From Patescibacteria group bacterium (lineage in GTDB: Bacteria > Patescibacteriota > Patescibacteriia > Patescibacteriales > JBAZCA01): a DNA stretch of 64,000 nt. Within the stretch, counting starts at the first letter, position 1. Each line of letters begins with the position of its first letter. Under the pieces are notes generated by a model that had not been told where the DNA came from, did no database searches, and worked only from the letters and a program-made list of their open reading frames with translations. Of this stretch, positions 16,371 to 54,388 are shown in pieces. Made by a program: the position numbers and the translations under genes. The stretch lies in the NCBI GenBank assembly GCA_041661405.1, contig JBAZUL010000004.1, forward strand, positions 15,309-79,308. The letters are read 5' to 3'.

Positions 16371-16400
16371 ATGTTGGTGAAAAGTGGGGAAGTGTGGAGA
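16371..16400 (+). promoter_or_regulatory. Three 10-nt-phased GTGG-type direct repeats (candidate MraZ boxes)
   Basis: ATGTTGGTGA / AAAGTGGGGA / AGTGTGGAGA at 16371, 16381 and 16391 share A..(T/G)TGG.GA. They lie between the -10 element and the mraZ ATG. Confidence 0.45.
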
Positions 16401-16405
16401 ATTAT

Positions 16406-16837: not shown

Positions 16838-16869
16838 AACAATTTTCAATTATAAATTTATCCCCAATA

Positions 16870-17868: not shown

Positions 17869-17955
17869 TTTTCAATGATTTAATAATCTTCATGCAGAAA
17901 TTAATTCATTAAAGATTGGAAGTTGTTTAAAAATTAAAAATTTGAAATTATTGTT

Positions 17956-18285: not shown

Positions 18286-18327
18286 TTGCTTGTCGTGCTA
18301 ACATAAAAGCTAAAACAAAATGAGAAC

Positions 18328-20391: not shown

Positions 20392-20402
20392 TAAAAAGAT
20401 AA

Positions 20403-21695: not shown

Positions 21696-21718
21696 ACAAA
21701 TTGAACGAAAAATAAAAA

Positions 21719-21754
21719 ATCCCCGTCTCGCTCTCGGCGAGCCGAGGCGGAAAA
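21719..21754 (+). repeat. Intergenic copy of tsaB module-A palindromic core
   Basis: ATCCCCGTCTCGCTCTCGGCGAGCCGAGGCGGAAAA compared with 15761-15796 shows 2 substitutions and 1 indel. Its 3' end (GAGGCGG) supplies the SD for mnmA. Confidence 0.85.
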
Positions 21755-22927: not shown

Positions 22928-22952
22928 ATTTAAAACAAAATAATTACTTAAT

Positions 22953-24851
22953 ATGACCTCAAAAGAAATACGCCAAAAATACCTGGATTTTTTTAAAGCC
23001 CGGGAGCATGCCATAATTCCTTCGGCTTCCATTATGCCGGATAATGATCCGACAACGCTTTTCACGAGCTCGGGCATGCAGCCTCTTGTGCCATACCTTC
23101 TCGGCGAAAAGCACCCGGAAGGCAAAAGGCTCGCCAACTCGCAAAAATCATTCCGGGCCGAAGATATTGAAGAGGTCGGCGACAACCGGCATACGACTTT
23201 TTTTGAAATGCTCGGCAACTGGTCTTTGGGCGACTATTTTAAAAAAGAGCAGTTAAGATGGTATTTTACTTTTATTACGGAGGAACTCGGGATTGACCCT
23301 AGCCGCCTTTACTCAACCGTATTCCGCGGCAATAAGGAAATCGGCATTGATAAGGACAGCGAAGCGGTCGGAATCTGGAAAGAACTTTTTAAAGAAAAAG
23401 GCATTGACGCTAAAGACGTTGATTTTGCCGAGCGGGACGGGATGCGAGCGGGGAGGATTTTTTATTATGACGAGCGGAAAAACTGGTGGTCAAGATCGGG
23501 AATCCCGGCCAACATGCCGGTCGGCGAACCGGGCGGGCCGGACTCAGAACTGTTTTACGACCTTGGCGCGGATTTAGGCCGCCACGAAAATTCCCAATGG
23601 AAAGATGAACCTTGCCACGTAAATTGCGATTGCGGCCGGTTTATTGAAATCGGCAACAGCGTGTTTATGGAATTCAAAAGGACTGAGAACGGCTTTGAAA
23701 AACTCGCCCAGCAGAACGTTGATTTCGGCGGCGGGCTGGAGCGGACGACCATGGTTGTCCAGAATCTTGACAATATTTTTGAAACTGACCTTTTTAGTAA
23801 TATCCTTAATAAAATCAGCGAGCTCTCAGGCGGAAAAAAATATCGGGAGCATATGAAAGAATTTGAAGTGATTGCCGAGCATCTGCGAGCCGCTACCTTT
23901 ATTATCGGCGACGACAAAGGCGTTGGCCCGGGGAATACCGGCCAGGGTTATATCGTTAGGAGGCTTATAAGAAGAGCGATTCGCTACGGCCGGCTCTTAG
24001 GCATTAGCGAAGAATCATGGACCAAAGAAATCGCCAAGATTGTCGCCCATGATTATGGCGAAGCTTACCCGGAACTCCGACGGAACATTGATTTTGTTAT
24101 TGGCCAGTTAAAGGAAGAAGAAGATAAGTTTAGCAGGACCCTTGAGAAAGGATTAAAAATTTTTGAAGAAAGATTTAGAGAAATAGGGGAATATGAAACC
24201 CCTCCGGCAAATAACATGATTAGCGGTGAAGAGGCGTTTAATTTGTATCAGACTTATGGCTTTCCGATTGAGATGACCCGGGAGCTGGCGGCGGAACACG
24301 GCCTGAAAATTGACGAGCAAGGCTATAAGAAGGAAGCGGAAAAACACCAGGCTCTTTCCCGCACCGCTTCAGCCGGAATGTTTAAAGGCGGTTTGGCTGA
24401 CGCAAGCGAGGAAACAAAAAAACTCCATACAGCAGCTCATCTCCTTCTCGCGGCCCTGCGAAAAGTCTTAGGCGATCATGTTACGCAAAAGGGCAGTAAT
24501 ATAACGAGCGAAAGGATGCGCTTTGATTTTTCCCATCCGGAAAAGATGACTAAAGAGCAAATTAACGAAGTGGAAAAATTAGTAAACAGCGCTATTGAAA
24601 AAAAGCTTCCGGTGGCTTCTGAAGAAATTCCTCTTGAAGATGCAAAGAAAAAAGGCGCCATGGGTGTTTTTGAATCAAAGTACGGGGAAAAGGTAAAAGT
24701 TTACAAGGTTGGCGAAGGAAATAACGTTTTTTCTTATGAAATCTGCGGCGGTCCGCACGCGGAAAATACCGGCGAACTCGGGCATTTTAAGATAACCAAA
24801 GAAGAAAGCTCCAGCTCCGGTGTTCGGAGAATTAAAGCGGTTTTGGAGTAA
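22953..24851 (+). CDS. alaS: Alanine--tRNA ligase, short form ending after the editing domain
   Basis: MTSKEIRQKYLDFFKAREH...DPTTLFTSSGMQ, then HTAAHLL and CGGPH editing-domain motifs. At 632 aa there is no C-Ala/DHHA1-like tail. Confidence 0.9.
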   Translation: MTSKEIRQKYLDFFKAREHAIIPSASIMPDNDPTTLFTSSGMQPLVPYLLGEKHPEGKRLANSQKSFRAEDIEEVGDNRHTTFFEMLGNWSLGDYFKKEQLRWYFTFITEELGIDPSRLYSTVFRGNKEIGIDKDSEAVGIWKELFKEKGIDAKDVDFAERDGMRAGRIFYYDERKNWWSRSGIPANMPVGEPGGPDSELFYDLGADLGRHENSQWKDEPCHVNCDCGRFIEIGNSVFMEFKRTENGFEKLAQQNVDFGGGLERTTMVVQNLDNIFETDLFSNILNKISELSGGKKYREHMKEFEVIAEHLRAATFIIGDDKGVGPGNTGQGYIVRRLIRRAIRYGRLLGISEESWTKEIAKIVAHDYGEAYPELRRNIDFVIGQLKEEEDKFSRTLEKGLKIFEERFREIGEYETPPANNMISGEEAFNLYQTYGFPIEMTRELAAEHGLKIDEQGYKKEAEKHQALSRTASAGMFKGGLADASEETKKLHTAAHLLLAALRKVLGDHVTQKGSNITSERMRFDFSHPEKMTKEQINEVEKLVNSAIEKKLPVASEEIPLEDAKKKGAMGVFESKYGEKVKVYKVGEGNNVFSYEICGGPHAENTGELGHFKITKEESSSSGVRRIKAVLE

Positions 24852-25420: not shown

Positions 25421-25506
25421 TGATTAGTTAATTAGGAAATTAGTTAATTAGTTAATTAGGAAATTTATCTATTCCCAAATTAACCGATTAACTAATCAAC
25501 CAATCC
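25421..25506 (+). repeat. TTAGTTAATTAGG word hairpin directly after the rpmJ stop
   Basis: GATTAGTTAATTAGGAAATTAGTTAATTAGTTAATTAGG opposes AATTAACCGATTAACTAATCAACC. Same word family as 28163 and 43991. Confidence 0.8.
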
Positions 25507-26615: not shown

Positions 26616-26682
26616 AGTTAAAAGTTCAAAGTGTAATGTTAAAAGTTGCGATTCCTTAACTTTCAACTTTGAACTTTTAACT
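26616..26682 (+). repeat. Perfect 17-bp AAAGTTCAAAGT word hairpin between rpsK and rpsD
   Basis: AGTTAAAAGTTCAAAGT (26616-26632) is the exact reverse complement of ACTTTGAACTTTTAACT (26666-26682). The same words occur in rsmH and tsaB. Confidence 0.9.
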
Positions 26683-27346: not shown

Positions 27347-28162
27347 ATGGAAACCATAGCTTTACCCCAGAACGTGGAATTTAACAAAGGCGCCGGACCC
27401 CATGAATCTCTGGCGTCCATTTATCCCTGCTACCCAGGCTACGGAATTACTCTCGGCAATTCGCTTCGCCGGGTGCTTCTTTCCAGTCTGCCGGGAGCGG
27501 CTGTAATCGGTGTAAAAATAAAAGGAGCGGACCATGAATTCATGTCGCTTCCGCACGTCAAAGAAGATGTTCTGGAAATAATTTTGAATTTAAAAAAATT
27601 GAGACTGAAAGTTTTTTCCGACGAACCAATAATACTTAAACTTAGCGCTCATGGCGAGAAAAAAGTAAAAGCCGGGGATATCGCCAAATCCAGCCAGATT
27701 GAGATAATTAACCCGGAGCTTGTTATCGCCGGAATCACCGACATGGCCGGCAATCTGGAGATGGAAATTCACGTCGCCCAGGGCAAAGGCTATGAGCCGG
27801 TTGAAGCCAGGGAAAAGAAAAATTCTGAAATCGGCTATATTGAGATAGATTCCATTTTTACGCCGGTGCTCAAGGTCGGAATTGACATTGAAAACATCCG
27901 CGTCGGCAAGATGACTAACTGGGAAAAGCTTAAACTGGACATAAAAACCGACGGGACCATGGAACCCGAAGAAGCTTTTGAAAAAGCGGCTAAAATATTG
28001 ATTGAACAGTTTAAAGCTTTAGTCGGAAAAGAAAAAGCGACGGACGAAGCCGGGGAAGCGAAAGAAGTTTTGGAAAGCGAGGCCGGCGACGGCGACGCGT
28101 CCGAGGCTGAAGAAGGAGTTAAAGAATCCGGAAAGAAGCGGGGAAGGCCGAAGAAAGGATAA
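27347..28162 (+). CDS. rpoA: RNA polymerase alpha subunit, N-terminal domain only, with acidic tail and terminal AT-hook-like KKRGRPKKG
   Basis: Alpha-NTD motifs are present (GYGITLGNSLRRVLLSSLPGAAV). The protein is 271 aa. No helix-hairpin-helix alpha-CTD sequence follows about residue 225. Confidence 0.85.
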   Translation: METIALPQNVEFNKGAGPHESLASIYPCYPGYGITLGNSLRRVLLSSLPGAAVIGVKIKGADHEFMSLPHVKEDVLEIILNLKKLRLKVFSDEPIILKLSAHGEKKVKAGDIAKSSQIEIINPELVIAGITDMAGNLEMEIHVAQGKGYEPVEAREKKNSEIGYIEIDSIFTPVLKVGIDIENIRVGKMTNWEKLKLDIKTDGTMEPEEAFEKAAKILIEQFKALVGKEKATDEAGEAKEVLESEAGDGDASEAEEGVKESGKKRGRPKKG

Positions 28163-28218
28163 TTAGTTGATTAGTTAATTGGTTAATTAGGATTGCGTTA
28201 ATAACTAATTAACCAAGG
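28163..28218 (+). repeat. TTAGTTGATTAG word hairpin directly after the rpoA stop
   Basis: TTAGTTGATTAGTTAATTGGTTAATTAGGA differs at 1 of 30 nt from 43991-44020. The right arm is CTAATTAACCAA. Confidence 0.85.
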
Positions 28219-28246
28219 AGCCAGTCCGCAATTTAAATAAATACGT

Positions 28247-35515: not shown

Positions 35516-37495
35516 CTATTTTACCCCATACTTAAACACGTAATCCTGTCCGTTGCAAAAGGCCTTAAAAGAATCAGCCGAGAGTTTAGCCTCGTCTAAA
35601 ACTTTGGGAAATTCAAACCAGTATTTGTTTAAGACAAAATAGCCGGTTTTAACGTCCGCCAGGTTCATGGCCTTATTTATCCTTACGGCCGTCGGCTTAT
35701 CGTAAACCATGGCTAAATAATACTGGTAAAGCGCGCCGCCGGTCGGAATCGGGTAATTAAAAATTTCTTCGCCGGTTTTCGTTTTTACGTAATTAGTAAA
35801 GCCGAATTCGTAAAGAGCCCCGGCCGAAACCTGCTGGTTGGCAAGGACAATATATTTTTCTCCGGCCGCGTCCGCGTTAATCCACTTTATCGCTTCTAAA
35901 TCACAGGCTCCGGTTGAATAGCCCCGGGAATTAAAATAAGCGTCATAGCGCGGGTAAGAAATATAGAGCGAGGCAATGATAAGAACCGCGAAAAATATCA
36001 GGTTGGAATAAAGGACAAGTCCCGCGGAAGTGGTGATTTTTTTGACATACCAGCCAAAGATTAGAAAAATGAACGGTAGGAGAAACATGAAAGAAAGAAA
36101 TAAAATCCGGTCCGAATAAGCTGAGCGTTCGTAATTTATAAGAAAGCTGAAAGAAAGGGCTTCGGTCAAAAGATAGGAAAAAAAGAGCGAGATTGCCATG
36201 AAAAAATATGCCTGGTATTTTTTAAATCGCTTTTGGTAAATCGCGAAACCGATCCCGGTTAGCGCGATAAGCAGAAAAATTTTTGCTCCGTTTTGGGTGA
36301 TCAAATAGGCAAAATTAAGAAAAATGTTCTCGCGGTTGGGAAAGCTTAAAAAAAGATTAGCCGCGATTGAAGTAAAAATTTCCGAAAGACCGGCAAGGGG
36401 GGTTTCGCGCGGCCCGGCGGTCTGCTTTTCAAAAATATAAAAAGCGGCCGGGAGCGACAAAGCGGACGAGGAGTAAATTAAGAGATAGATATATTTTCTA
36501 AACAACGGCATTAAAATTTTTAATTTTTGCCCGTCTTTCGCGAGATACGCGTGAAGCAGACCAGCCAATGAAAAAAATATGAGCGGCAGACCGGCCAGCG
36601 GATGGATTATAAAGGCGGCCAGCGATAAAAGAAGGAGAAGGAAAAAATCCGCCGGTTTTTTCGCCCGAAGCCCGAGGAGAATGACGATGAGGGCAATAAG
36701 GAAAGCCAGGTTCTGCGGCGTGGTTTGGATTAAAAAAGAAAAGGGAAAGATCAGAAGCAGAGCCGCGGAAAAAACCGGGTTTTCATGGCCTTCGGAGCGG
36801 AAAGTTTTTACGGCCAGGGCGGGTAAGACAAGGGCGGCGAGCGCCGGAACCAGGAAAGTATTTATCCAGCCAAGCGGAATGAAAAATAGTTTATGGAGAA
36901 TTATGGCCAGTCCGTAATAGCCTGAGTAGTAGATGGTTTTCGGCGCGATAAAGCCGGCCGCGCCAATCACTTTCAGGGCGGCGGCGTGGATGAAAGGATC
37001 AAACCCGTAGCCTATTTTGTAAATTATGACGGCGACAGCGAATGAAAGGAAAAAGTGAAAGAAAATAAGTATTATGTATTTTGTATTATGTATTTTGTAT
37101 TTGAAAAATTGAGAAGTCAAGTATATAAGTAATAACGAGGCGAGAAAATAAAATACGAAAAAGTAAGCCGGTATAACCTGCCAGGGCGAGATTATGGCCT
37201 GATTCGTGCGGCTAATAAATAAAGAATAGAAAGCCATTCCCGAAAAGATTAAATAGAGGCTGGCCGGTAAAATGGCTGTGAGCCAGTTTTTCAGGCTGAT
37301 TTTTTTTTCAGCCGGTTCATACAAAGCCGCGAGTTTTTCTTCCCCGAGGACAAAATAGGGAAGAAACTTCCAGCCAAAAGCAATAGTAATGGCGGCGCTA
37401 AGAAAGATTCCGATAGAATCAAGCCGGTAAAAATAATAAACCAGTCCGCTGGAAAGCGATAAAATTGAGACAAAAGCCAGGACTATGTTTAGCAT
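35516..37495 (-). CDS. Polytopic membrane protein with C-terminal soluble domain (possible GT-C-like, unassigned)
   Basis: 659 aa with more than 12 hydrophobic segments. No motif recognised. It contains an exact 14-nt tandem duplication at 37070-37097. Confidence 0.6.
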   Translation of the reverse strand: MLNIVLAFVSILSLSSGLVYYFYRLDSIGIFLSAAITIAFGWKFLPYFVLGEEKLAALYEPAEKKISLKNWLTAILPASLYLIFSGMAFYSLFISRTNQAIISPWQVIPAYFFVFYFLASLLLIYLTSQFFKYKIHNTKYIILIFFHFFLSFAVAVIIYKIGYGFDPFIHAAALKVIGAAGFIAPKTIYYSGYYGLAIILHKLFFIPLGWINTFLVPALAALVLPALAVKTFRSEGHENPVFSAALLLIFPFSFLIQTTPQNLAFLIALIVILLGLRAKKPADFFLLLLLSLAAFIIHPLAGLPLIFFSLAGLLHAYLAKDGQKLKILMPLFRKYIYLLIYSSSALSLPAAFYIFEKQTAGPRETPLAGLSEIFTSIAANLFLSFPNRENIFLNFAYLITQNGAKIFLLIALTGIGFAIYQKRFKKYQAYFFMAISLFFSYLLTEALSFSFLINYERSAYSDRILFLSFMFLLPFIFLIFGWYVKKITTSAGLVLYSNLIFFAVLIIASLYISYPRYDAYFNSRGYSTGACDLEAIKWINADAAGEKYIVLANQQVSAGALYEFGFTNYVKTKTGEEIFNYPIPTGGALYQYYLAMVYDKPTAVRINKAMNLADVKTGYFVLNKYWFEFPKVLDEAKLSADSFKAFCNGQDYVFKYGVK

Positions 37496-37597: not shown

Positions 37598-39511
37598 ATG
37601 AAATATAAGCTAGGGAACGGAATAATACTTCTTGCTTTGGCCGTCGGTTTTTTTATTTCCACTGGCGCCTACATCCATCTCTCTCAAAAAGGGGGCTTTT
37701 TAAAATGGGGGTCGCCGGATGAAACCGCCAATTATTATTTTTCCCGCCTTTACGCCCGGGAAGGGAAGTTGTCGGTTTTTGAAAAATATAACCCAAGAGC
37801 CGGGGAAATAATTCATCCCCGGAGTTTCCGGAGCGATTCAGGCGAGCTAAAACCGGTGAGCTTCCTCGGCCTGCCTTTAGTTTACGGCATAATCGGCTCC
37901 TTTACAACCGAAAAAATCATCGGCTATCTTACCCCGTTTTTCGCGGCAATCGGGATAATTTATTATTACTTTTTTTTAAAAATATTTTTTTCCTGCCGCG
38001 TTGCCCTGCTTTCAGCCTCTATTCTTTCGGTTTTTCCGGTGTATTTTTATTACAGCGCCCGGAGCATGTTCCATAATGTTTTATTCATGGTGTTTTTAAT
38101 TGTCGGCTCATATTACGCCGTAATTTCCGTTATTTCGAAAAATACGAAAGGCGCGAAAGAAAACGAAAGGCGCGAAGAGACCAGGGAGGAAAAAAATAAA
38201 ACCGGCAATGGCGCTGAAAAAAATGAAAGGCGCGAAGCGGAAAAGGCGGAAATCGCCGATAACGCTAATAGCGAAGAGCCGAAAATCAAGAAAGGGATTT
38301 GGCCTCTGGTTAAAGGATTGATTTTTGCCGCTTTGGGCGGGCTTTTTATCGGCCTGGCAATTGCCGTCCGGTCTTCGGAACTTTTATGGCTCGGTCCGGC
38401 GCTGTTTATCGCCTGGGCGTTAAACTTTTGGCGTTTCGGATTGGCGCGGCTGGTTATTTTTATATCATTTTTCGCTTTGGCTCTGCTCCCGGTATTTTAC
38501 TGGAACAATATTCTTTACGGTTCGCCGACGAGCGGCGGCTATCCGGCCATGAATGAATCAATCGTCGCTGTAGCCGGGGGCGGCAAAGATTTCGTTAAAT
38601 CAATTCCTGGCCTGGCGAGCGGGGGAACAGGACGAGTCAGAGAGCTCGCCATGACAATTGAAAAAGCTATTTTCAGCTTTGGAATTAATGTTCCCCGGTC
38701 AATAAAAATTTTCCAGCTTTATTTCATAAAAATGTTTTACTGGATTTTTTGGCCAGCGCTCGCGGGCTTACTGCTTTTTGTTCTCAATTTTAAGAAATTT
38801 AAGAAAAAGCATTTTATCTATATCCTTACTTGGATTTTTTTCTCGGCAATATTGGTTTTATATTACGGAAGCTGGGAATTTTACGATAATCCGGATAAAA
38901 ACGCCGCGACCATCGGCAATTCCTACACCCGCTACTGGCTGCCGGTTTATCTCGGCGCCATTCCGTTCGCTTCATACCTGATTTTTAAAATTATTGATTT
39001 ACCAGCGCTGTTAACAGGCCTTTTGGGGAGAATCCATATTTTTAAATCATTAATAGAAGATACCCGGCGGCTCCAAAAAATTTTTCAGGGCTTCCTTTTG
39101 GGACTCGTGATTCTGTCGCTCTTTTACGTGAGCGCTAATTTCACATTGTTCGGCTCGGAAGAGGGTCTCGCGTTCTCTTATTACAAGGGAGTTGCCGCCA
39201 GGCTGGAATACGAAAAAGTCCTCGGACTTACGGAAGCTAACGCGGTAATTCTTACCCGCTACCACGACAAGATATTTTTTCCCGAAAGAAAGGTAATAGT
39301 CGGACTGTTTGACGACCCAAACATGATCGCCGCTTACGCCCGCGTCGCTGAAAATCTTCCCCTGTATTATTATAATTTTACTTACCCGGAGTCCACTGTT
39401 AATTACCTTAATAGCGGCCCTTTGGGAAAAGTGAATTTGAAAATGGAAAAAGTAGAAATGATCACTGATGATTTTACTTTATACAGGTTCAAGCTTACAA
39501 ATCAGAAATAA
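37598..39511 (+). CDS. Polytopic membrane protein, GT39/ArnT-like glycosyltransferase candidate
   Basis: The N-terminal loop GSPDETANYYFSRLYAREGKL...HPRSF...FLGLPLVYG resembles PMT_2/ArnT-family first loops. Multiple TM segments. A charged repeat insert lies at 38143-38240. Confidence 0.5.
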   Translation: MKYKLGNGIILLALAVGFFISTGAYIHLSQKGGFLKWGSPDETANYYFSRLYAREGKLSVFEKYNPRAGEIIHPRSFRSDSGELKPVSFLGLPLVYGIIGSFTTEKIIGYLTPFFAAIGIIYYYFFLKIFFSCRVALLSASILSVFPVYFYYSARSMFHNVLFMVFLIVGSYYAVISVISKNTKGAKENERREETREEKNKTGNGAEKNERREAEKAEIADNANSEEPKIKKGIWPLVKGLIFAALGGLFIGLAIAVRSSELLWLGPALFIAWALNFWRFGLARLVIFISFFALALLPVFYWNNILYGSPTSGGYPAMNESIVAVAGGGKDFVKSIPGLASGGTGRVRELAMTIEKAIFSFGINVPRSIKIFQLYFIKMFYWIFWPALAGLLLFVLNFKKFKKKHFIYILTWIFFSAILVLYYGSWEFYDNPDKNAATIGNSYTRYWLPVYLGAIPFASYLIFKIIDLPALLTGLLGRIHIFKSLIEDTRRLQKIFQGFLLGLVILSLFYVSANFTLFGSEEGLAFSYYKGVAARLEYEKVLGLTEANAVILTRYHDKIFFPERKVIVGLFDDPNMIAAYARVAENLPLYYYNFTYPESTVNYLNSGPLGKVNLKMEKVEMITDDFTLYRFKLTNQK

Positions 39512-39527
39512 TATTCCAGAACATACT

Positions 39528-40475
39528 ATGCGAAGAATATTTTTAAAAATAAAAGAAAAGTTGGGCGCGGCTTTTTATTTAAAGCCGCAAGAATACGCGG
39601 TTAGCTATAGCGTTCGGCTGAATAATCTGTCCGCCGAGTCAAATATGATTACTTTGGTTTTACCGGTGCCGGAAAATTTAAGCAATCAGAAAATTTTAAA
39701 AGCTCCGGAATTCGATATCAAGCCGGACGATTTTGGAATTGAAAAGGAGTACGGCAATAATTACGCGGCCTGGAAGTTCGCGATGCAAGCCGGTGAAGAA
39801 AAAGAAATCAAGATGGATTTTTCCGTTAATGTCAAACCGCTTACATCTGAGCCGAAAAAAAAGTTTGGCATTAACGATTATGCCGGAGATGAAATTTATA
39901 AGCTTTATACCCGGCCGAACAGCCTGATCCATCCGGAGGACGAAAAAATAAAAAGCCTGGCTAAAAAAATAAGAGGGACTCAGGATGATGTAAAAGAAAT
40001 TTTGGCGGCCATAAACGCGTACGTTGTATTCAACCTGAAATATGGCGCTCCGATTAAGGGGCTTTATTCGGATATTGACGCTTTGGAAAAGGATGAAGTG
40101 GATTGCGGCGGTTTTGCCGCGCTTTACTCGTCATTGGCGATAGCCTCCGGCGTCCCATCGCGCGTAGTATCCGGTTTTTGGGCCGGTTATGAAAATAATA
40201 CCATGCACGCCTGGGCAGAGTCGCTTATGCCTGATAAAACCTGGCTTTCGGCTGATCCGGCTACCGAACAGCTTCGTAGAAATGGCCGGACGAAAAAATT
40301 CGGTCGGCTGGGTAAAACCGGAAGCGACCGGATTATTTTATCCAAAGGCTGTGATTTGGAATTGGTTGTCGGTGATGATATGATAAAAACAGAGATTCTG
40401 CAGAATCCGATCGTGATTGCGGAAAAGGGGAGAGAATCAATAGAGTGTTTATGGGAATTTAAAACATTATCATGA
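39528..40475 (+). CDS. Transglutaminase-like (Cys-His-Asp) domain protein
   Basis: DCGGFAALYSSLAIASGVPSRVVSGFW...MHAWAE...WLSADP. The ATG at 39528 is preferred, since the ORF-track start at 39468 overlaps the upstream gene. Confidence 0.7.
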   Translation: MRRIFLKIKEKLGAAFYLKPQEYAVSYSVRLNNLSAESNMITLVLPVPENLSNQKILKAPEFDIKPDDFGIEKEYGNNYAAWKFAMQAGEEKEIKMDFSVNVKPLTSEPKKKFGINDYAGDEIYKLYTRPNSLIHPEDEKIKSLAKKIRGTQDDVKEILAAINAYVVFNLKYGAPIKGLYSDIDALEKDEVDCGGFAALYSSLAIASGVPSRVVSGFWAGYENNTMHAWAESLMPDKTWLSADPATEQLRRNGRTKKFGRLGKTGSDRIILSKGCDLELVVGDDMIKTEILQNPIVIAEKGRESIECLWEFKTLS

Positions 40476-40482
40476 TAAATTT

Positions 40483-41292
40483 ATGCGGGAGGGAAACAAT
40501 CAAATCATAATCTACAATAGTGAAGACGGAGAAACTAAGATTGAGGTCAAGATGGAGAATGAGACAGTTTGGCTTAGCCAGAAACAGATGGCCGAGCTTT
40601 TTGATAAAGATGTCAAAACTGTCAATGAGCACATAAAAAATGTGTTTTTTGAGGGAGAATTAGCGGAAAATTCAGTTATCCGGAAATTCCGGATAACTGC
40701 TTCGGACGGGAAAAGTTATGAAACGATGTTTTATAATCTTGACGTTATTATATCTGTCGGTTACCGCGTTAAATCGCATCGCGGCACGCAATTCCGCATC
40801 TGGGCGACGCAAAAATTGCGGGAGTATATAATTAAAGGGTTTGCTATGGACGACGAGCGATTAGCCGGTGGCGGAATAAAGAAGACTTATTTTAATGAAT
40901 GGGAAGAACGGATCAGGAAAATCCGTACTTCGGAAGCTAATTTTTACCAGAAAGTCAGGGACGTATTCGCGACCAGCGTTGACTATAATCCGAAGCTAGA
41001 TTACGCCAGGCGATTCTTCGCGACAGTGCAGAATAAATTCCATTACGCGATTACTGGTTTGACGGCGGCCGAAATTGTCAGCAATCGGATTGATAGCCAA
41101 AAAGAAAATATGGGATTAACGAACTGGAAAGGGGAAATTATTGTCCGCGAGCAGGCGGAAATCGCCAAGAATTACCTTAAAGAGCTGGAACTGAAAAGAC
41201 TGAATTTATTGGTTGAGCAATTTTTATCTTTTGCTGAATTGCAAAGCGTGGAGCAGAGAGTGATGTATATGAAAGACTGGAAAATAAAATAG
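40483..41292 (+). CDS. RhuM-family protein, apparently C-terminally truncated
   Basis: WLSQKQMAELFDKDVKTVNEHIKNVF...YNLDVIISVGYRVKSHRGTQFRIWAT is typical of RhuM. The ORF stops right after MYMKDWKIK, where family members (from memory) continue for roughly 50-60 more residues. Confidence 0.65.
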   Translation: MREGNNQIIIYNSEDGETKIEVKMENETVWLSQKQMAELFDKDVKTVNEHIKNVFFEGELAENSVIRKFRITASDGKSYETMFYNLDVIISVGYRVKSHRGTQFRIWATQKLREYIIKGFAMDDERLAGGGIKKTYFNEWEERIRKIRTSEANFYQKVRDVFATSVDYNPKLDYARRFFATVQNKFHYAITGLTAAEIVSNRIDSQKENMGLTNWKGEIIVREQAEIAKNYLKELELKRLNLLVEQFLSFAELQSVEQRVMYMKDWKIK

Positions 41293-41314
41293 TCCAACTC
41301 TAACAGATAATTTT

Positions 41315-41650
41315 ATGCAATTTTTAGTTATTGGTAAAGACGGAAAAGATAAAAATGCCATGAAGAGAAGAATGTCTTCAAGAGAAGCGCATATTAAATT
41401 CGGGGACGAAATGGAAGCTTTAGGTAATAGATGGTATGGTTGTGTAATGCTGGATGACAATAGTAAAATGATTGGATCTATGGCGGTAATGGATTTTCCC
41501 ACGGAGAGAGAGTTTAAAAAATGGTTAAAAAAAGAGCCGTATGTTACTGGTAAGGCATGGAAAAAGATTGAAGTTTTTAAGTGTAATGTTAAAAGGCCTT
41601 GGAAATTCAATAGGCCTGAATCATTTTTTGAAAATAGAAATAAAGTATGA
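41315..41650 (+). CDS. YciI-like protein
   Basis: MQFLVIGKDGKD...RREAHIKFGDEM...GSMAVMDFPTEREFKKWLKKEPYV matches the YCII fold pattern. The stop overlaps the next start (ATGA). Confidence 0.65.
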   Translation: MQFLVIGKDGKDKNAMKRRMSSREAHIKFGDEMEALGNRWYGCVMLDDNSKMIGSMAVMDFPTEREFKKWLKKEPYVTGKAWKKIEVFKCNVKRPWKFNRPESFFENRNKV

Positions 41651-42891
41651 TCTTTACCGGATTTTCGCCAAATTTAACAGGAAGGGACGCGCTTAAAGCT
41701 TTGGGCTGGCTTTTTTTGCCATGGAACTGGAAAAAGCTGGCCAAAGGCGGAAACGTGGAAAAAGCGGAAAGAGAATTGGAAAAATATTTTGGCGTAAAAA
41801 ATGCCCTGGCTTTTGACAGCGGGCGGACAGCCTTGTATTTTGCTTTGAAGGCGCTGGATGTGAAACAAGGCGACGAAGTCTTGGTTCAGGCGTTTACCTG
41901 TGTGGTCGTGGCGAACGCCATAAGATGGACGAGAGCCAAACCGGTGTATGTTGACGCAAGGGATGACTTTAATATGGATCCGGAAGATCTCCAAAAGAAA
42001 ATTTCACCTAAAGCCAAAGTTATAATTATTCAACACACTTTTGGTTTGCCGGCGGACATGGAAAAAATTATGGCTTTGGCGGATAAATATGGCTTGCGCG
42101 TGGTTGAAGACTGCGCTCATAGCTTTGGGGCAAGACATGGCGGGCGGTTAACCGGAACCATCGGCGATATCGGCATGTTTTCTTTCGGTAGCGACAAAAT
42201 TTTATCCTGCGGCCGGGGTGGGGCGCTCATAACCGACAACGCGGAACTTTATCAAAAGCTAAAACAATATCAGTCCGGACTGGAACCGCTCACAGGGAAA
42301 GACATAACCCGGCATCTTTTGCATTTTCCGGTTTTTTATATCGGCAAACCTTTATATGGGTTATTTATCGGCAAAGCTGTATTGTGGCTTGCGAAAAAAA
42401 TGTATTTCGTGAACCGGATTATCACACAGAAGGAAAAAACTGGCGAAAAAGATGAATTATTCGGTCGGCTTTTGCCGAACGCATTGGCCGGCATATTGCT
42501 CGGCCAGCTTAAAGATGTTGACAGTATGAATAAACAAAGAAGAAAGACCGCCGCTTTGTATGACACTGAAATTTCGGAAAAGATTGAAAGACCGCTCGTT
42601 AAAGCCGCGAATAAGGATGAATGCGTTTATCTGCGTTATCCGATTTTAACTGACCGGCCGAAAGAATTGATGAAGGACGCGAAAAGGCATAAAATAATTC
42701 TAGGGGACTGGTATGATTCGGTTATCGCGCCGCGGGATTTAAGAATGGATAAGACCGGATATGAAAAGGGTAGCTGTCCAAGAGCCGAATTACTGTCAGA
42801 GCGAATCGTAAATTTACCTACTGACAGGAATGTGAACGAGAAAAAAGCGCGGAGAGTGGCGGAAGTTGTTAATAGATGGGTTAATGGGTGA
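41647..42891 (+). CDS. DegT/DnrJ/EryC1/StrS-family PLP aminotransferase
   Basis: FDSGRTALYFALKAL, VVEDCAHSFGA and FSFGSDKILSCGRGGALIT (PLP lysine). Confidence 0.8.
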   Translation: MIFTGFSPNLTGRDALKALGWLFLPWNWKKLAKGGNVEKAERELEKYFGVKNALAFDSGRTALYFALKALDVKQGDEVLVQAFTCVVVANAIRWTRAKPVYVDARDDFNMDPEDLQKKISPKAKVIIIQHTFGLPADMEKIMALADKYGLRVVEDCAHSFGARHGGRLTGTIGDIGMFSFGSDKILSCGRGGALITDNAELYQKLKQYQSGLEPLTGKDITRHLLHFPVFYIGKPLYGLFIGKAVLWLAKKMYFVNRIITQKEKTGEKDELFGRLLPNALAGILLGQLKDVDSMNKQRRKTAALYDTEISEKIERPLVKAANKDECVYLRYPILTDRPKELMKDAKRHKIILGDWYDSVIAPRDLRMDKTGYEKGSCPRAELLSERIVNLPTDRNVNEKKARRVAEVVNRWVNG

Positions 42892-42926
42892 GTATTTTGG
42901 TATTCGTTTTTACATTAATTGAATTC

Positions 42927-43994
42927 ATGCCTATAAAAATAAAACCAATCACTGACGAAAAATCCTGGCAAGATTTTGAGAAGATTCGCGCGCCGCATAC
43001 TTTTCTGCAAACCTGGGAATGGGGAGCCGCGCAGGAGCTTCTTGGCAATAAAATTTTTCGGCTGGGGATTTACGGCAACGGCAAAATTCAGGGAACCGCT
43101 TTTGCTTATAAAATCAGCGCCCGGCGGGGATCGTTTTTGTTCTGTCCGCACGGCCCGTCAATTGACTGGAAATGCTCTGAATTTCCGCAAAATACGAAAA
43201 AAACAAAATACGAAAATTTTGATAATTTTCGGGCGCTGGCCGGTTATTTGCGCGAACTGGGAAAAAGCGAGAGAGTGGGATTCGTTCGGATTAGTTCGCT
43301 GGCTCCGGATAATGATGACATGAAAAAACTTTTTCGGGATTCCGGTTTTATTTCGGCGCCGGTTCATATGATGCATCCGGAAAACGCCTGGATCCTTGAT
43401 ATTGACCGGCCGGAAGAAGAAATAATCGGCGCCATGAAAAAAAGAACCCGCTATTCAATCCGCAAAGCGGAAAAAGACGGCATAAAAATTACGACATCAG
43501 CCAATCCGGCCGACGTGAGGCTATTTTATGAAATGTATCTTGAAACCGCCAGACGGCAGAAATTCGTCCCGTTTTCGGAGAGCTATATCCGGCGCGAATT
43601 TGAAATATTCCGGAAAAATAATAAAGCCCTGATGTTTTTTGCTTATTTTAAAGGGAAACTCATTTCCGCGGCTGTAATTATTTTTTCTTCTAAAATGGCT
43701 TTTTATCATCACGGCGCTTCAATCCGGTCGGATAATTCCGGCCTCACGGCCTCGGAATTACTGCAATGGAACGTCATCCTTGAAGCCCGGCACCGGGGAC
43801 TCGCTAGCTATAATTTTTGGGGCATCGCGCCGGAGAATTGCCCGAAACATCCTTGGCACGGTTTGACAACTTTTAAAAAAGGTTTTGGAGGACATCCGGA
43901 AAATTATCTGCACGCCCAAGACCTTGTAATTTCGCCGAAATATTGGTTAAATTACATAGTGGAAACGGTAAGACGGTGGAAGAGGGGATATTAG
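42927..43994 (+). CDS. FemAB/FemX-family aminoacyl-tRNA-dependent peptidyl/aminoacyl transferase
   Basis: FLQTWEWGAAQE, MKKRTRYSIRKAEKDGI, YHHGAS, LQWNVILEARHRG..YNFWGI and TTFKKGFGG motifs. The ATG at 42927 is preferred over the GTG at 42888. Confidence 0.8.
   Translation: MPIKIKPITDEKSWQDFEKIRAPHTFLQTWEWGAAQELLGNKIFRLGIYGNGKIQGTAFAYKISARRGSFLFCPHGPSIDWKCSEFPQNTKKTKYENFDNFRALAGYLRELGKSERVGFVRISSLAPDNDDMKKLFRDSGFISAPVHMMHPENAWILDIDRPEEEIIGAMKKRTRYSIRKAEKDGIKITTSANPADVRLFYEMYLETARRQKFVPFSESYIRREFEIFRKNNKALMFFAYFKGKLISAAVIIFSSKMAFYHHGASIRSDNSGLTASELLQWNVILEARHRGLASYNFWGIAPENCPKHPWHGLTTFKKGFGGHPENYLHAQDLVISPKYWLNYIVETVRRWKRGY
43188..43218 (+). repeat. 16-nt-period AAAATACGAAAA word repeat translated inside femX-like CDS
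   Basis: CAAAATACGAAAAAAACAAAATACGAAAATT differs at 1 of 31 nt from the intergenic 51560-51590. Here it encodes QNTKKTKYENF. Confidence 0.9.
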
Positions 43995-44074
43995 TTGATT
44001 AGTTGATTGGTTAATTAGGAAAAATATATTAACCAACCAACTAATTAACTAATCAACCAATTAACCAATTAACT
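43991..44074 (+). repeat. TTAGTTGATTAG word hairpin spanning the femX-like stop to the next ATG
   Basis: The left arm TTAGTTGATTAGTTGATTGGTTAATTAGG contains the TAG stop (43992-43994). The right arm is TTAACCAACCAACTAATTAACTAATCAACC. Confidence 0.85.
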
Positions 44075-45289
44075 ATGTTTGAGCGAACAAAAGATCTAAA
44101 ACTCTCGGTAATCAAGCAGATGGAATTAAAGGCGGCGAAAATCCCCGACGTGATATCACTCGCTCAGGGCGTGCCGAGCTTTGACACTCCGCAGTTCATA
44201 AAAAGGCGGGTGGAAAAAGAATTGAAAAATCAGGTAATTTCAAAATATTCGCTCTCGCCCGGGATGATGGAACTGCGGGAGCTTTTTGAGGCGCATCTGG
44301 CTAAGGAAAACATGCATTACGACTGGGAAACGGAGATTCTTGTTACGGTCGGAGCGATTGAAGCGCTAACCGCGACTATCCTGGCGCTTACCATGCCCGG
44401 CGATGAAATTCTCGTTCCTGAGCCGGCTTATACTTCCTATCGCGAAGTGATTACCCTTGCCGGATGCAATCCGGTTTACGCGCCGTTAAACGAAGAAAAA
44501 GACTGGGGGCTTGAGATGGCTGAAATTGAAAATGCCATCACCCCGAAAACCAAAGCCATAATCTATTCCAACCCTTCCAATCCGACCGGGACGATTTTCT
44601 CCAAATCTCAACTTTTAGAACTCGTGGAATTCGTAAAAAAACACGATATTTTCCTTATTACCGACGAGCTTTACAAGGATTTTGTTTTTGATCCTTCCTA
44701 CCTTGAAAACGGCCGGCTCTTTTCGGTCGCCGAGATTCCTGAGATCCGGGAAAAGGTAATCCGAATTTTTAGCCTCTCAAAATTATTCGCCATGACTGGC
44801 TGGCGGGTCGGCTTTCTCCATAGCGACGCCAAAAACGTCAAGGAGATTTTAAAAGTCCATGACTGCCTTGTTACTTGCGCGCCGGTAATTTCCCAGGTCG
44901 CGGCTATGGGCGCACTTGAGGGTTGCGAGGAAAATATTACTAATTTTAACGTTGAATTCCAGAAACGTCGGGATCTGATCTGCGCGCGACTTGATAAGCT
45001 CGCCAAATATTTCAGTTACGCCAAGCCTCAGGGAGCCTATTATATTTTCCCGAAAATTAAACCTGAGGCTTTTCCAAAAATGAAAAAGGCCGTAAATTCA
45101 AAAGGCGCGGAAGTGATTGATTCATGGGAATTTTGCGTTGATCTCCTGGAAAAAGCCAAAGTCGGCACTGTTCCCGGGTTTGCTTTTGGGCCATCAGGCG
45201 AAGGGCATTTCCGAATGAATTTTGCCAAGAGCGAGGAAAACATCAATGACGCTTTTGACCGGATAGAAAAATACTGTGAGAATCAATAA
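44075..45289 (+). CDS. Class I/II PLP aminotransferase (aspartate/aromatic-type)
   Basis: LAQGVPSFDTP, NPSNPTG, and SLSKLFAMTGWRVGF (SxSK lysine). Confidence 0.8.
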   Translation: MFERTKDLKLSVIKQMELKAAKIPDVISLAQGVPSFDTPQFIKRRVEKELKNQVISKYSLSPGMMELRELFEAHLAKENMHYDWETEILVTVGAIEALTATILALTMPGDEILVPEPAYTSYREVITLAGCNPVYAPLNEEKDWGLEMAEIENAITPKTKAIIYSNPSNPTGTIFSKSQLLELVEFVKKHDIFLITDELYKDFVFDPSYLENGRLFSVAEIPEIREKVIRIFSLSKLFAMTGWRVGFLHSDAKNVKEILKVHDCLVTCAPVISQVAAMGALEGCEENITNFNVEFQKRRDLICARLDKLAKYFSYAKPQGAYYIFPKIKPEAFPKMKKAVNSKGAEVIDSWEFCVDLLEKAKVGTVPGFAFGPSGEGHFRMNFAKSEENINDAFDRIEKYCENQ

Positions 45290-45350
45290 ATCAATCTACA
45301 ATTTGCAACGGCTTATTAATTGATAATTGTAGATTGAAGATTGACTTATT
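45290..45350 (+). repeat. TCAATCTACAATT word hairpin directly after the stop
   Basis: TCAATCTACAATT pairs perfectly with AATTGTAGATTGA. The right side continues AGATTGA as in 25990-26010. Confidence 0.85.
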
Positions 45351-45356
45351 GATCCA

Positions 45357-45431
45357 AGGGCTTGTAGTACAGTGGTAGTACGCCGCATTCGCATTGCGGA
45401 GACGGGAGTCCGATTCTCCCCAAGTCCACCA
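45357..45431 (+). tRNA. tRNA-Ala(CGC)-like gene with encoded CCA and non-canonical features
   Basis: Hand-folded cloverleaf: D stem GTAC/GTAC with GG in the loop; anticodon arm CCGCA-TTCGCAT-TGCGG (anticodon CGC); T arm GGGAG-TCCGATT-CTCCC; 3' end CAAGTCC-A-CCA. The acceptor 5' strand reads GGGCCTTG. That gives either a C3-U70 mismatch, or G3-U70 with a bulged C. The T loop has C at position 55. Confidence 0.7.
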
Positions 45432-48748: not shown

Positions 48749-51550
48749 ATGCAAAATTATTTAAAGTTAGCCAAAAAATATTCACGAAAAAGAAGCGCCA
48801 GTTTGCTTGAATGGCACAGTAATGCGCTTGCGGTCATTTTTAAGCTAGCTTTCTTCGCTTTAACCCTGGGGTTGTCATTTAATGCTTTTTCTTTTGACGT
48901 TTCAGCCTCAAGCGGACTTAGCGCTGATATAAAGCAGGTAAAAACCGCAAATAGCGCGACTGTTTATTATCTTGACCACGCGCGCGCCCTGAAAAAAGCT
49001 TATGTTTCAGCTGAGTCATATTTGTCCTACGGAAACCGTTGGTCAGATATTAAGATTATATCCCCAGAAAAATTGGCTTTATGGAAGGACGCCGAATTAA
49101 TTAAAGCCGCGGGCAATGCCGGAGTTTATTACATCCGCGACGGAAAAAAAGCGCTTATCAGGTCTGAGAAAGAATTTATCGGACTGGGCTTTAACTGGAA
49201 TGATATTATTACGCTTTCCGCGATTGATTTCAATTCTTATAAAGAAACCGGCTTGAGCGAGCTTTACACTTCTTCCGTCAACAAAATTTCGGCTGAGGAA
49301 TCTCGGACGGATTATTCCGGACTTGGAGTTTATCTTGATTCAATGAGTCCTAAAGAAGGCTATGCCGTGATTAACACCAGGGATAACCTGGCGGCGGTTT
49401 TTGATCTAATTTCCCGTTCAGAAAAAACCATAACAATAAAAAGTTTTTCTTTTGACCTCAAAGGCGTGTATTCGGACGACCTCGTAAAAGATATTTACCT
49501 TGCCAATGACGCTGGCGTAAAATACGAAAATTTCATCGCCAACCGGATTGGGCACAAAGTAACATTCAGTTTTAGGAACCCCGGCTTGGCGCTTGCTCCC
49601 GGAGAAGTAAAAAAAATATCCGTCTATATTGACCTCGGCGGTTCAAAAACCAACGAAGGCCAGGCTTACCAGGTTGCCATGGAAAATACCGGCTATGTTT
49701 TTGCTGATTGTCCGGTAGCCGGAGGATTTCCCCTTGTCTCAGCGCGCCAAAAAATTCTTATCGGCGATGGTGTATTGGGAAAACTTCGGGCTGACGAAGA
49801 AAGCCTCAGCGGCTATAACAAGCGGGCGGTTATCGGGTCAACCGACCAGCCGATAATTAAGTTCAGCCTGAAAGAACTGACTAAAAATGAAGATCTGGCC
49901 GTAAAAAAAATAACTTTCACCAGCTTCGGTTCAACCGGGCCGGACATGATAAAGAATTTTAAGCTGAAAAACAGTTCTGGCAAAATTATCGCGCAGACCG
50001 CGGCGCTTAATGAGGATAATAAGCTATATTTCAACGTCAGCGATTACATAATCAGCAAAGACTCAAAAGAAACGTTTTTGGTGACGGCCGATATTGTTGA
50101 CGGCGAAGAAAAAACTTTTGATTTTAATATCCTTGAAGTTAAAGTCTCAGACAGAAATACCGGCCTCGGTCTTTCGGCCGATATTTATAATATTGACGAG
50201 AGCCAGACCATAAAAAGAGAATATATCGGAGTAATCGCCAAGGATTTAAAAACCAATACCAAGGTTTTTTCAAAACAAAAAGGCGTGATTGTCGGCAATT
50301 TTGAGATAAGGAATAATAATAAAAAAATCACCCTGCAGAGCCTTGAATTTGAACTGCAAAAAAATTCATCTGCTCCGCGGATTGAGGCCACGGTTTACCT
50401 CGTTAATTACGCCACGGGCGAAATTTACGGACACGCCGAAGGGATAGAGCTTAGCGCCGGACCGGCTGTCATAAACATGGTTCCGGTCAAGATGGAAGCG
50501 AAAAAAAGCCTAACCGTAACGCTAATTACTGATATTCCAAAGGATACATCGGCCGGAGATTATTACCTGGCCATTCTGAACAAAATAAATTACGAATCAG
50601 AAAACGGCGCTCATTACAGCGATTCGGTGAAGGCGCCGGGCGCAAAATTGAATGTAACGAGTTCCGGGCTGTATGTTTACCCGAACCACGAACTGGAAGG
50701 GCTTACTTATATTAAGGGCGAAGGCGGAGTAACTGTCGCGAATTTTATTCTTGAAGCCTCGTCCGGCGAGGATATTGTCATTAACGGGATTACTGTCGCG
50801 CAGGGCGAGACTTCGGGAGCGATAACTTACGATAACGGTTTTTCAGGACTCCGGGCGTATATCAACGGAAAACGGGCAGGCCAGGTTATTTACGAGCCGA
50901 CCGGAGCCACTTTCGCTTTAAGCGGTTTCAACTATGTCCTTAAAAACGGCAGCCGGGTTAAGCTCATTATCGTCGCTGACACGACGCGCGACTTAAGGGT
51001 ATCGGAAACCCAAATGGCTTTAAGCGAACTGATCGCCGTTGGCTATAAGTCGGGAATTCCGACCAGCGCCGCGGGGCTTCCCAGCCAAAGCTATCCGGTA
51101 TTCTTTGACATCACCGCGCTGGATGTTGCTGCGGTGAATGGCGGAGCCGCTATACTGGATTCGGACAATAACCTTGTCGCCAGCTTCAGCGTTGCTAACT
51201 TAGGGATTGAAGATATCAGGTTAAGACAAATTGAAATAACCACCTCTGACGCCGGATTCACCTCAAGTTTAGGGTTTTATAACTTGAGAATCGCTGAAAA
51301 AGCGTCCGGCCGCAAGCTGGGAAGCGTTAGCCGTCCGGTCGCCGGAGCCAACGTGGTTTCCATGGGAAATATCACCGTTAAAGCCGGAGAAAAATTATAC
51401 TTTGACGTTTATGTTGATACTGACGGCCGGGTTTTAGCCGGAAGTTTCCAAGTGTATTTTAACGTCCTCAGGGCTGAGGGCGCGGTATCGCGGCTATCGC
51501 CCGACATAACCGGCGACCCGACCGATCCGGTCACGGTAACGGTGAATTAA
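48749..51550 (+). CDS. Large membrane-anchored extracellular repeat protein (Ig-like beta-sandwich repeats), unknown function
   Basis: 933 aa. There is an N-terminal TM anchor (LAFFALTLGLSFNAF), then two VYY(L/I)xD...W.DI motifs, then repeated units of about 90-100 aa. No family recognised. Confidence 0.65.
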   Translation: MQNYLKLAKKYSRKRSASLLEWHSNALAVIFKLAFFALTLGLSFNAFSFDVSASSGLSADIKQVKTANSATVYYLDHARALKKAYVSAESYLSYGNRWSDIKIISPEKLALWKDAELIKAAGNAGVYYIRDGKKALIRSEKEFIGLGFNWNDIITLSAIDFNSYKETGLSELYTSSVNKISAEESRTDYSGLGVYLDSMSPKEGYAVINTRDNLAAVFDLISRSEKTITIKSFSFDLKGVYSDDLVKDIYLANDAGVKYENFIANRIGHKVTFSFRNPGLALAPGEVKKISVYIDLGGSKTNEGQAYQVAMENTGYVFADCPVAGGFPLVSARQKILIGDGVLGKLRADEESLSGYNKRAVIGSTDQPIIKFSLKELTKNEDLAVKKITFTSFGSTGPDMIKNFKLKNSSGKIIAQTAALNEDNKLYFNVSDYIISKDSKETFLVTADIVDGEEKTFDFNILEVKVSDRNTGLGLSADIYNIDESQTIKREYIGVIAKDLKTNTKVFSKQKGVIVGNFEIRNNNKKITLQSLEFELQKNSSAPRIEATVYLVNYATGEIYGHAEGIELSAGPAVINMVPVKMEAKKSLTVTLITDIPKDTSAGDYYLAILNKINYESENGAHYSDSVKAPGAKLNVTSSGLYVYPNHELEGLTYIKGEGGVTVANFILEASSGEDIVINGITVAQGETSGAITYDNGFSGLRAYINGKRAGQVIYEPTGATFALSGFNYVLKNGSRVKLIIVADTTRDLRVSETQMALSELIAVGYKSGIPTSAAGLPSQSYPVFFDITALDVAAVNGGAAILDSDNNLVASFSVANLGIEDIRLRQIEITTSDAGFTSSLGFYNLRIAEKASGRKLGSVSRPVAGANVVSMGNITVKAGEKLYFDVYVDTDGRVLAGSFQVYFNVLRAEGAVSRLSPDITGDPTDPVTVTVN

Positions 51551-54299: not shown

Positions 54300-54302
54300 A
54301 AA

Positions 54303-54388
54303 TAAGTTATAAAGTTATAAAGTAAAAAGTTTAAAGTATTATATTTATACTTTTAGCCTTATACTTTATAACTTTAAACTTTATAACT
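54303..54388. repeat. GTTATAAAG / CTTTATAAC word hairpin in the clpB leader
   Basis: AGTTATAAAGTTATAAAGTAAAAAGTTTAAAGTAT opposes ATACTTTATAACTTTAAACTTTATAACT. Confidence 0.8.

Follow-up and report, generated by a model that had tools for sequence, protein, structure and literature searches.

A 64-kb stretch of DNA from a Patescibacteria (Candidate Phyla Radiation, CPR) genome, hereafter the window, to whose full length all window coordinates refer, was annotated from an open reading frame (ORF) map, Pfam and NCBIfam scans, ARAGORN and Rfam. This report concerns two consecutive ORFs of the window, the first encoding a putative DegT/DnrJ/EryC1-type aminotransferase dependent on pyridoxal phosphate (PLP) and the second a putative FemX-type transferase of the FemABX family (Table 1). 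The initial annotation had placed both ORFs in a four-gene yciI-degT-femX-aminotransferase cluster followed by a tRNA-Ala gene possibly dedicated to FemX. Our comparative analysis showed that YciI does not accompany the pair in the relatives and that the class I aminotransferase and the tRNA are not co-conserved beyond the nearest of them; the real unit is a two-enzyme DegT-FemX cassette, co-inherited across CPR and sometimes encoded as one polypeptide. At the junction of the pair, the mechanical ORF call starts FemX at GTG 42888 (368 amino acids), overlapping the DegT stop codon as GTGA, which corresponds to the abutting ORFs described initially. Alignment with 24 homologues favors ATG 42927, 35 nt past the DegT stop codon, as the likely family start.

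To define the unit, 94 related loci were assembled from metagenome and genome contigs, including 84 non-redundant FemX loci. A scan of a genome collection for FemX relatives gave one locus only, and the survey was thus built on metagenome contigs and contig look-ups. The nearest relatives of the window are loci L001/2, L003 (a short contig), L004/5 and L009, the last being the closest. The proteins of the window were mapped onto the collected loci and, separately, all ORFs of 83 neighborhoods were clustered de novo, while adjacency was counted over those 64 non-redundant loci whose sequence reaches 1.3 kb or more 5' of FemX. A DegT-like gene lies immediately 5' of FemX in 50 of these 64 loci, is found elsewhere in the locus in seven and is absent from seven, and FemX identity across the paired loci ranges from 93% down to 41%. 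The stop and start codons of DegT and FemX often overlap among the surveyed loci. Along the FemX tree the neighboring gene switches repeatedly between a transglutaminase-like gene and a MurF-like ligase gene, and the DegT-FemX pair stays whole. A survey of CPR neighborhoods had been proposed with the initial annotation, and in the present one DegT and FemX are co-localized in most loci.

The pair is also found as a single ORF. In the de novo clustering DegT was grouped with FemX because both are encoded by one ORF in two independent contigs, L047 (4429-6648, 739 amino acids) and L042 (2644-4851, 735 amino acids). These two DegT::FemX fusions carry both the PF01041 and the PF02388 domain and retain the PLP lysine and the FKKGFGG motif. 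When the L047 fusion was used as a database query, 65 of the best 120 clusters at 90% identity were DegT::FemX fusions (684-779 amino acids), with identities to L047 down to 31%; the named members among these fusion clusters are Kaiserbacteria or Parcubacteria. The fusions and the conserved adjacency are strong evidence that the DegT-like and FemX-like enzymes share one pathway, and the tight coupling first proposed from the window is borne out by the adjacency, by fusions in many lineages and by the catalytic residues kept in both enzymes. The gene order might instead reflect shared regulation or inheritance only, with the two enzymes acting in unrelated pathways, as compact CPR genomes hold housekeeping blocks in order (for example GreA, a class II synthetase and seryl-tRNA synthetase, SerRS, 5' of the module). 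We consider this very improbable, since the pair is fused in many lineages, persists while the flanking genes change and has overlapping stop and start codons.

Table 1. Coordinates of the features discussed; positions refer to the window unless a locus is named.
Feature	Position	Strand	Support
DegT/DnrJ/EryC1-type PLP-dependent aminotransferase-like gene, pair member 1	41647..42891	+	414 amino acids; PF01041, E=1.6e-72
FemX-type (FemABX family, double-GNAT) transferase-like gene, pair member 2	42927..43994	+	355 amino acids; PF02388, E=7.7e-28
Transglutaminase-core protein, frequent third member ("type B" architecture)	39468..40475	+	335 amino acids; PF01841, E=1.8e-16
RhuM-family gene, outside module	40483..41292	+	PF13310, E=3e-87
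YciI-like gene, outside module	41315..41650	+	PF03795, E=1.8e-7
AT-rich "word" hairpin, FemX/aminotransferase gap	43990..44053	+	~25 bp; dG -26.7 kcal/mol; z = -6.8
Class I/II (AspC/PatA-like) aminotransferase, outside module	44075..45289	+	PF00155, E=1.9e-62
tRNA-Ala(CGC), outside module	45358..45431	+	ARAGORN; Rfam tRNA, 65.9 bits
Second stand-alone FemAB gene 3' of fusion	L092 10243-11289; L093 10170-11192		
SerRS heading module (examples)	L089 6538-7812; L091 5076-6353		

The DegT-like protein has the hallmarks of a fold-type I PLP enzyme. Residues K184, D155 and S179 do not vary among 25 homologues; K184 corresponds in the alignment to the lysine of PDB entry 7b0m, and both the PLP lysine and the aspartate facing the pyridine nitrogen are present. 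Its AlphaFold2 model (predicted local distance difference test, pLDDT, 93.6) superimposes on GDP-perosamine synthase, WbpE, ArnB, QdtB and PseC with a template modeling (TM) score of ~0.75. The protein is ~24% identical to any solved family member, scores far below the cut-off of all NCBIfam sugar-aminotransferase equivalogs, and carries an extra helical insert of ~70 residues (about 217-290) together with a divergent C-terminal domain. An N-terminal FTGFxPN motif is invariant in this DegT-like family, and the sequence DSGR takes the place of the customary SGT phosphate-binding motif.

The FemX-like protein is matched by both PF02388 and PF13480, and profile searches against the PDB retrieved Staphylococcus aureus FemX (6snr, E=9e-28) and Weissella viridescens FemX, FemX(Wv) (E=4e-15). 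The AlphaFold2 model (pLDDT 89.9) has the double-GNAT FemX fold, with Foldseek matches to 6snr (E=2.4e-23, TM 0.79) and to 1ne9 and 4ii9 (TM 0.77-0.78), all of them FemX/FemA structures. Profile alignment places F316-K317 over the catalytic pair F304-K305 of FemX(Wv), and this motif is invariant in 25 homologues and 75 loci. FemX(Wv) residues Y215 and Y254 have conserved counterparts; R211, which binds the phosphates of the uridine diphosphate (UDP) moiety, does not. The family has invariant His/Trp motifs of its own (PHTFLxSWxWG, CPHGP, FYHHGAS and HPWxGL), and its scores lie far under the curated equivalog cut-offs (36.6 against 500 bits for NF047883; 37.8 against 260 for pepcterm_femAB, TIGR03019), indicating that it is a distinct subfamily.

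Databases name each gene on its own, one as "FemA/FemB family" and the other as "DegT family", and our literature searches, made in a limited searchable library, found no description of a DegT-FemX pairing or fusion. Patescibacterial femX is routinely listed as a peptidoglycan gene (PMC12992704). Judged by comparative genomics, the pair appears to combine known kinds of enzyme in a pairing for which we found no published description.

The genes that recur around the pair belong in good part to cell-wall synthesis and cell division. Directly 5' of DegT, 21 non-redundant loci have a gene for a transglutaminase-like protein, 14 one for a MurF-like ligase and five one for an α/β-hydrolase. The partners that recurred in the de novo clustering were an FtsQ-like protein containing POTRA and FtsQ_C domains (36 loci), the MurF-like ligase (27), the transglutaminase-like protein (24), the α/β-hydrolase (22), SerRS (17), another class II synthetase (11), GreA (8) and a PMT_2 glycosyltransferase of the GT-C type (8, and 4 more in the clade of the window). 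The MurF-like neighbor scores 247-268 bits against TIGR01143, and the transglutaminase-core protein of the window carries Cys-His-Asp motifs (VDCGGFAAL, MHAWAE and SADPA). Homology of the transglutaminase-like protein to the N-terminal extension of the MurF-like ligase was considered and rejected, as they have no similarity. In the near-complete circular contigs L092 and L093, the DegT::FemX fusion follows genes for a Mur ligase and an α/β-hydrolase, in that order, and precedes a second stand-alone FemAB gene and then the gene for leucyl-tRNA synthetase (LeuRS); the tandem FemAB gene suggests the stepwise assembly of a multi-residue branch.

Aminoacyl-tRNA synthetase genes are a further part of this context. 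In 15 of the 37 loci with enough 5' sequence the module begins with SerRS, encoded on the same strand, in both the transglutaminase-type and the MurF-type architectures, and synthetases of the LysRS/AspRS-like class II, LeuRS and GluRS types flank the module in further loci. This recurrence may stem from aminoacyl-tRNA supply or simply from a preserved order of genes. The idea that SerRS points to the donor amino acid was dropped, given that the synthetases vary among loci and indicate no single amino acid. In the window, a block with division and cell wall (dcw) genes at 16394-24851 comprises MraZ, RsmH, an FtsI-type penicillin-binding protein, MurF (430 amino acids), MnmA and a short form of alanyl-tRNA synthetase (AlaRS, 632 amino acids). 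The organism's own MurF thus adjoins AlaRS, 18 kb upstream of the FemX module.

Taking together the family assignments, the fold, the conservation of catalytic residues, the adjacency, the fusions and the cell-wall and cell-division neighborhood, we propose, as the most parsimonious reading, that the DegT-FemX pair forms an amine on a nucleotide-linked cell-wall precursor and afterwards acylates it with an amino acid from an ordinary aminoacyl-tRNA, and we assign this reading a probability of roughly 45%. From this evidence we infer which reaction comes first, what kind of acceptor is used, which amino acid is moved and where the product goes. The DegT-like enzyme would first use PLP to turn a keto group of a nucleotide-linked envelope precursor into an amine; the FemX-like enzyme, through its Phe-Lys motif, would then move an amino acid, probably Ala or Ser, from an ordinary charged tRNA onto that amine; and the product would finally enter wall assembly, as peptidoglycan or as a peptidoglycan-linked polymer. 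The MurF-like and FtsQ-like context hints at an aminoacyl-tRNA donor and a peptidoglycan-precursor acceptor for the FemX-like protein and, with the second Fem gene, points to peptidoglycan as the target.

The same context bears on an alternative scheme, in which FemX is a conventional branching enzyme that attaches Ala, Ser or Gly from aminoacyl-tRNA to the diamino acid at position 3, through its ε-amine, in UDP-MurNAc-pentapeptide or lipid II. DegT would act elsewhere on the precursor and make no amino sugar; it might, for example, generate the distal amino group of that diamino acid in situ or work on the free α-amine of the residue that has been added. The FemX-like protein has peptidoglycan Fem enzymes as its closest characterized relatives and conserves the counterparts of Y215 and Y254, MurF-like and FtsQ-like genes lie directly upstream and downstream, respectively, in many loci, one locus (L082) has MurF, FemX and FtsQ with no DegT, the tandem second FemAB gene hints at stepwise bridge building, and patescibacterial femX is counted among peptidoglycan genes. 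The characterized DegT members among the PDB matches, on the other hand, all act on nucleotide-sugars or inososes and not on peptides, and the UDP-phosphate-binding R211 is not conserved. To our knowledge, the characterized FemX, FmhB and MurM enzymes require no PLP partner. We therefore regard conventional branching as possible, though on balance unlikely.

Several observations weigh against the proposal that the pair makes and then aminoacylates an amine. No keto-sugar-forming enzyme (4,6-dehydratase or 3-dehydrogenase) recurs within ±7 kb across the 83 neighborhoods, and annotation of all 64 kb of the window shows none, although the gene for one could lie in another part of the genome. Adjacent DegT is lacking for a minority of FemX genes, including those of the seven loci from which DegT is absent; in L082 the order is α/β-hydrolase, MurF, FemX and FtsQ, with overlapping codons. 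FemX proteins with no adjacent DegT retain all 59 family-conserved residues, so DegT may be dispensable for the FemX acceptor in these lineages or be encoded elsewhere. That they form a separate subfamily with an altered pocket was ruled out by the same 59 of 59 conserved positions. Finally, the FemX-like sequence is nearer to the peptidoglycan enzyme S. aureus FemX (9e-28) than to the amino-sugar enzyme Sbb17 (1e-10). The lack of a nearby keto-sugar maker and the DegT-less MurF-FemX-FtsQ lineages argue in particular against a strict scheme in which an amino sugar is made first.

An acceptor outside peptidoglycan was also considered, in which the pair would serve a secondary wall polymer, an S-layer or a protein glycan, the aminoacylated amino sugar being made on a nucleotide or polyprenyl carrier and moved by a GT-C enzyme of the PMT_2/ArnT-like kind. 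A PMT_2-type GT-C gene (37598-39511) adjoins the module in the clade of the window and another is found beside it in 8 other loci, and genes for glycans abound in the window (Wzy_C, a Wzx-like flippase, four GT4 genes and WecG/TagA). The DegT-family enzyme ArnB and the GT-C enzyme ArnT are an established pairing in lipid A modification. However, the GT-C neighbor occurs in only ~12 of ~83 loci, MurF-like and FtsQ-like genes are far commoner, and the lack of a nearby keto-sugar-forming enzyme tells against this scheme too, which we judge improbable.

Immediately upstream of the pair, the YciI stop codon overlaps the DegT start codon (ATGA at 41647-41650), as initially described, but YciI is not a member of the cluster. 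It is absent from every other FemX locus surveyed, its GC content is 33.6% against ~45% in the adjacent genes, and it lies in a 1.19-kb segment (40463-41649) that contains RhuM and YciI and has no counterpart in L009, where the transglutaminase-like gene and DegT are 28 bp apart. RhuM and YciI are a strain-specific insertion and bystanders to the module. Compared with L009 (5667-6960 region), DegT is 67-79% identical at the nucleotide level, whereas the figure is 93-98% for FemX and for the class I aminotransferase, and the identity breaks near 42850-42970, around the DegT/FemX junction. The lower identity of DegT beside the insertion suggests that this DegT allele arrived or was replaced along with it, by recombination across a mosaic spanning 40463-42970.

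Downstream of the pair, the best NCBIfam matches of the class I/II aminotransferase are generic and below the cut-offs. The gene is located 3' of FemX only in L001/2, L003, L004/5 and L009, and a hairpin separates it from FemX; its inclusion in the cluster was accordingly not sustained. Its amino acid identity to L001 and L009 is 97-98%, against 78% (L001) and 93% (L009) for FemX. Its nucleotide identity is 87-92%, and its neighbors are 59-93% identical to their relatives. An amino acid identity of 97-98% at this nucleotide identity indicates unusually strong purifying selection on the aminotransferase.

The "word" hairpin annotated before the aminotransferase is indeed present and is a probable operon boundary; its z-score was computed against shuffled sequence. 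Rfam returned only sub-threshold microRNA models for it, which we regard as chance fits to a long AT-rich stem, and a known RNA was thus discarded. This hairpin (extending to 44061) is one of a family of AT-rich intergenic hairpins found also at 25439-25504, 26616-26682, 28160-28235, 45291-45337 and 54302-54384, made of short repeated words (TTAGTTGA/TTAGTTAA and others) and sited at gene-cluster boundaries. These elements are probably terminators or repetitive extragenic palindromic (REP)-like elements of this genome.

The tRNA-Ala-like gene had been described at this position, 67 nt beyond the aminotransferase; the position is correct, the spacing is 68 nt, and the gene encodes a genuine tRNA. 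It has the G3:U70, G1-C72 and G2-C71 pairs, an intact D-loop GG (G18-G19) and an encoded CCA, and its orthologues differ by compensatory changes that keep all stems, indicating that the gene is functional. T-stem pairs 49-65, 50-64 and 51-63 are all G-C, summing to -0.4 kcal/mol by the Schrader-Uhlenbeck rules (values from Table 2 of PMC3239215), which predicts tight binding to elongation factor Tu (EF-Tu). The A-U/U-A/A-U T-stem of staphylococcal cell-wall tRNA-Gly (PMC7826273) gives +0.6 kcal/mol by the same table. The T-loop (45411-45417) reads TCCGATT, with C55 in place of the near-universal U55 and hence no pseudouridine 55; C55 is shared by the L001 orthologue (10391-10463), and TTC is present in the orthologues of L009 and L004 as well as in all 13 further CPR tRNAs compared. 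Over 31 window genes, GCG makes up 32% of Ala codons and GCA 4%.

The proposal that this tRNA is a dedicated, non-proteogenic FemX donor, comparable to staphylococcal cell-wall tRNA-Gly, can draw on its place 3' of the module in five loci, four of them distinct (L001/2, L004/5 and L009), on the C55 T-loop of the window and L001, which recalls the TGC or TGT that staphylococcal cell-wall tRNA-Gly genes carry where TTC is usual (PMC7826273), and on the presence of G1-C72 and G2-C71, both required by FemX(Wv) (PMC2175331). Nevertheless, the linkage is confined to these nearest relatives, no tRNA-Ala lying near FemX in ~75 other loci, and between femX and the tRNA lie an unrelated gene and two hairpins. 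As for the staphylococcal-type traits, the tRNA lacks U55, but its T-stem is not of the kind that binds EF-Tu weakly, codon use in the window does not point to redundancy in decoding, no lineage-wide linkage to fem genes is seen, and G18-G19 is intact. The normal TTC of L009, the closest relative, and of L004 leaves C55 as a side observation that does not support a dedicated tRNA. The tight T-stem and the use of GCG as a major codon indicate an ordinary decoding tRNA, and we give a dedicated function hardly any credence.

Elsewhere in the window, an AbiEii-type toxin gene (type IV toxin-antitoxin nucleotidyltransferase; 14746-15405) separates the dcw genes from the glycosyltransferase cluster. 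Three large ORFs have no Pfam or NCBIfam match: 35516-37495 (-, 659 amino acids), 48749-51550 (+, 933 amino acids) and 3-3545 (+, 1180 amino acids); the first two keep their position in the nearest relatives.

Translation, through aminoacyl-tRNA, and cell-wall synthesis are classically linked by Fem-type transferases, which are also antibiotic targets. CPR/Patescibacteria make up a large share of bacterial diversity; their envelope chemistry is essentially unknown, and surveys merely tally "femX". A FemX subfamily nearly always paired with, and often fused to, a PLP aminotransferase of the sugar type suggests that CPR bacteria produce a wall precursor bearing an additional aminoacylated amine. 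In its broadest form, which we put forward tentatively and consider doubtful, our proposal would describe a widespread primary-metabolism pathway of CPR. A tightly paired or bifunctional PLP-FemX enzyme would place an amine on a wall precursor carried by a nucleotide, either on a keto-sugar or on a stem-peptide residue bearing a keto group, which would be converted into a diamino acid in situ, and would then aminoacylate that amine. If true, such a pathway would yield a peptidoglycan or wall-polymer chemotype unknown in cultivated bacteria. The natural DegT::FemX fusions are handy single-polypeptide expression targets, allowing in vitro testing without culturing the organisms.

Among known systems, FemX(Wv) and S. 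aureus FemX/FmhB share with the CPR protein the double-GNAT fold (TM 0.77-0.79), the Phe-Lys motif and the Y215/Y254 counterparts. FemX(Wv) resembles it further in having no coiled-coil insert, and the MurF-like ligase adjoining the pair is in keeping with the FemX(Wv) acceptor, UDP-MurNAc-pentapeptide, which is the product of MurF (PMC2175331). The CPR subfamily differs in its identity of only 15-18% to FemX(Wv) and S. aureus FemX, in its own His/Trp motifs and in its near-constant coupling or fusion to a PLP enzyme of the DegT type. We know of no characterized Fem enzyme with such a coupling.

The chemistry first proposed for this locus has a parallel in Orf11 and in Sbb17/Sba18, whose FemABX-like fold acylates the amine of an amino sugar from aminoacyl-tRNA; Orf11 uses Gly-tRNA to modify the amino sugar of streptothrisamine (PMC12945691). 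Sbb17 and Sba18 match the FemX-like model with TM 0.63-0.67 when scaled to the length of the query and 0.76-0.81 when scaled to that of the target. Unlike the CPR protein, these enzymes belong to Streptomyces secondary metabolism, are more distant in sequence (E=1e-10) and have no DegT fusion or pairing reported in the review PMC12945691. In DhpH of dehydrophos biosynthesis, a C-terminal FemX-like domain acylates an amine by means of Leu-tRNA and has an essential Lys equivalent to FemX(Wv) K305 (PMC12945691). The substrate of DhpH differs, being a phosphonate amino acid of a secondary-metabolite pathway. Its N-terminal domain is reported to be PLP-dependent (Bougioukou et al., 2012), which would make DhpH, like the CPR proteins, a natural fusion of a PLP enzyme with a Fem-like domain. 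On the DegT side, ArnB, PseC, PglE, WbpE, Per and QdtB, enzymes of the DegT/DnrJ/EryC1/StrS family, share the fold-type I architecture, the SxxxxK lysine and the ED(C/A)AH aspartate with the CPR protein, which stands apart from them by its ~24% identity, the ~70-residue insert, the divergent C-terminal domain and the FTGFxPN motif.

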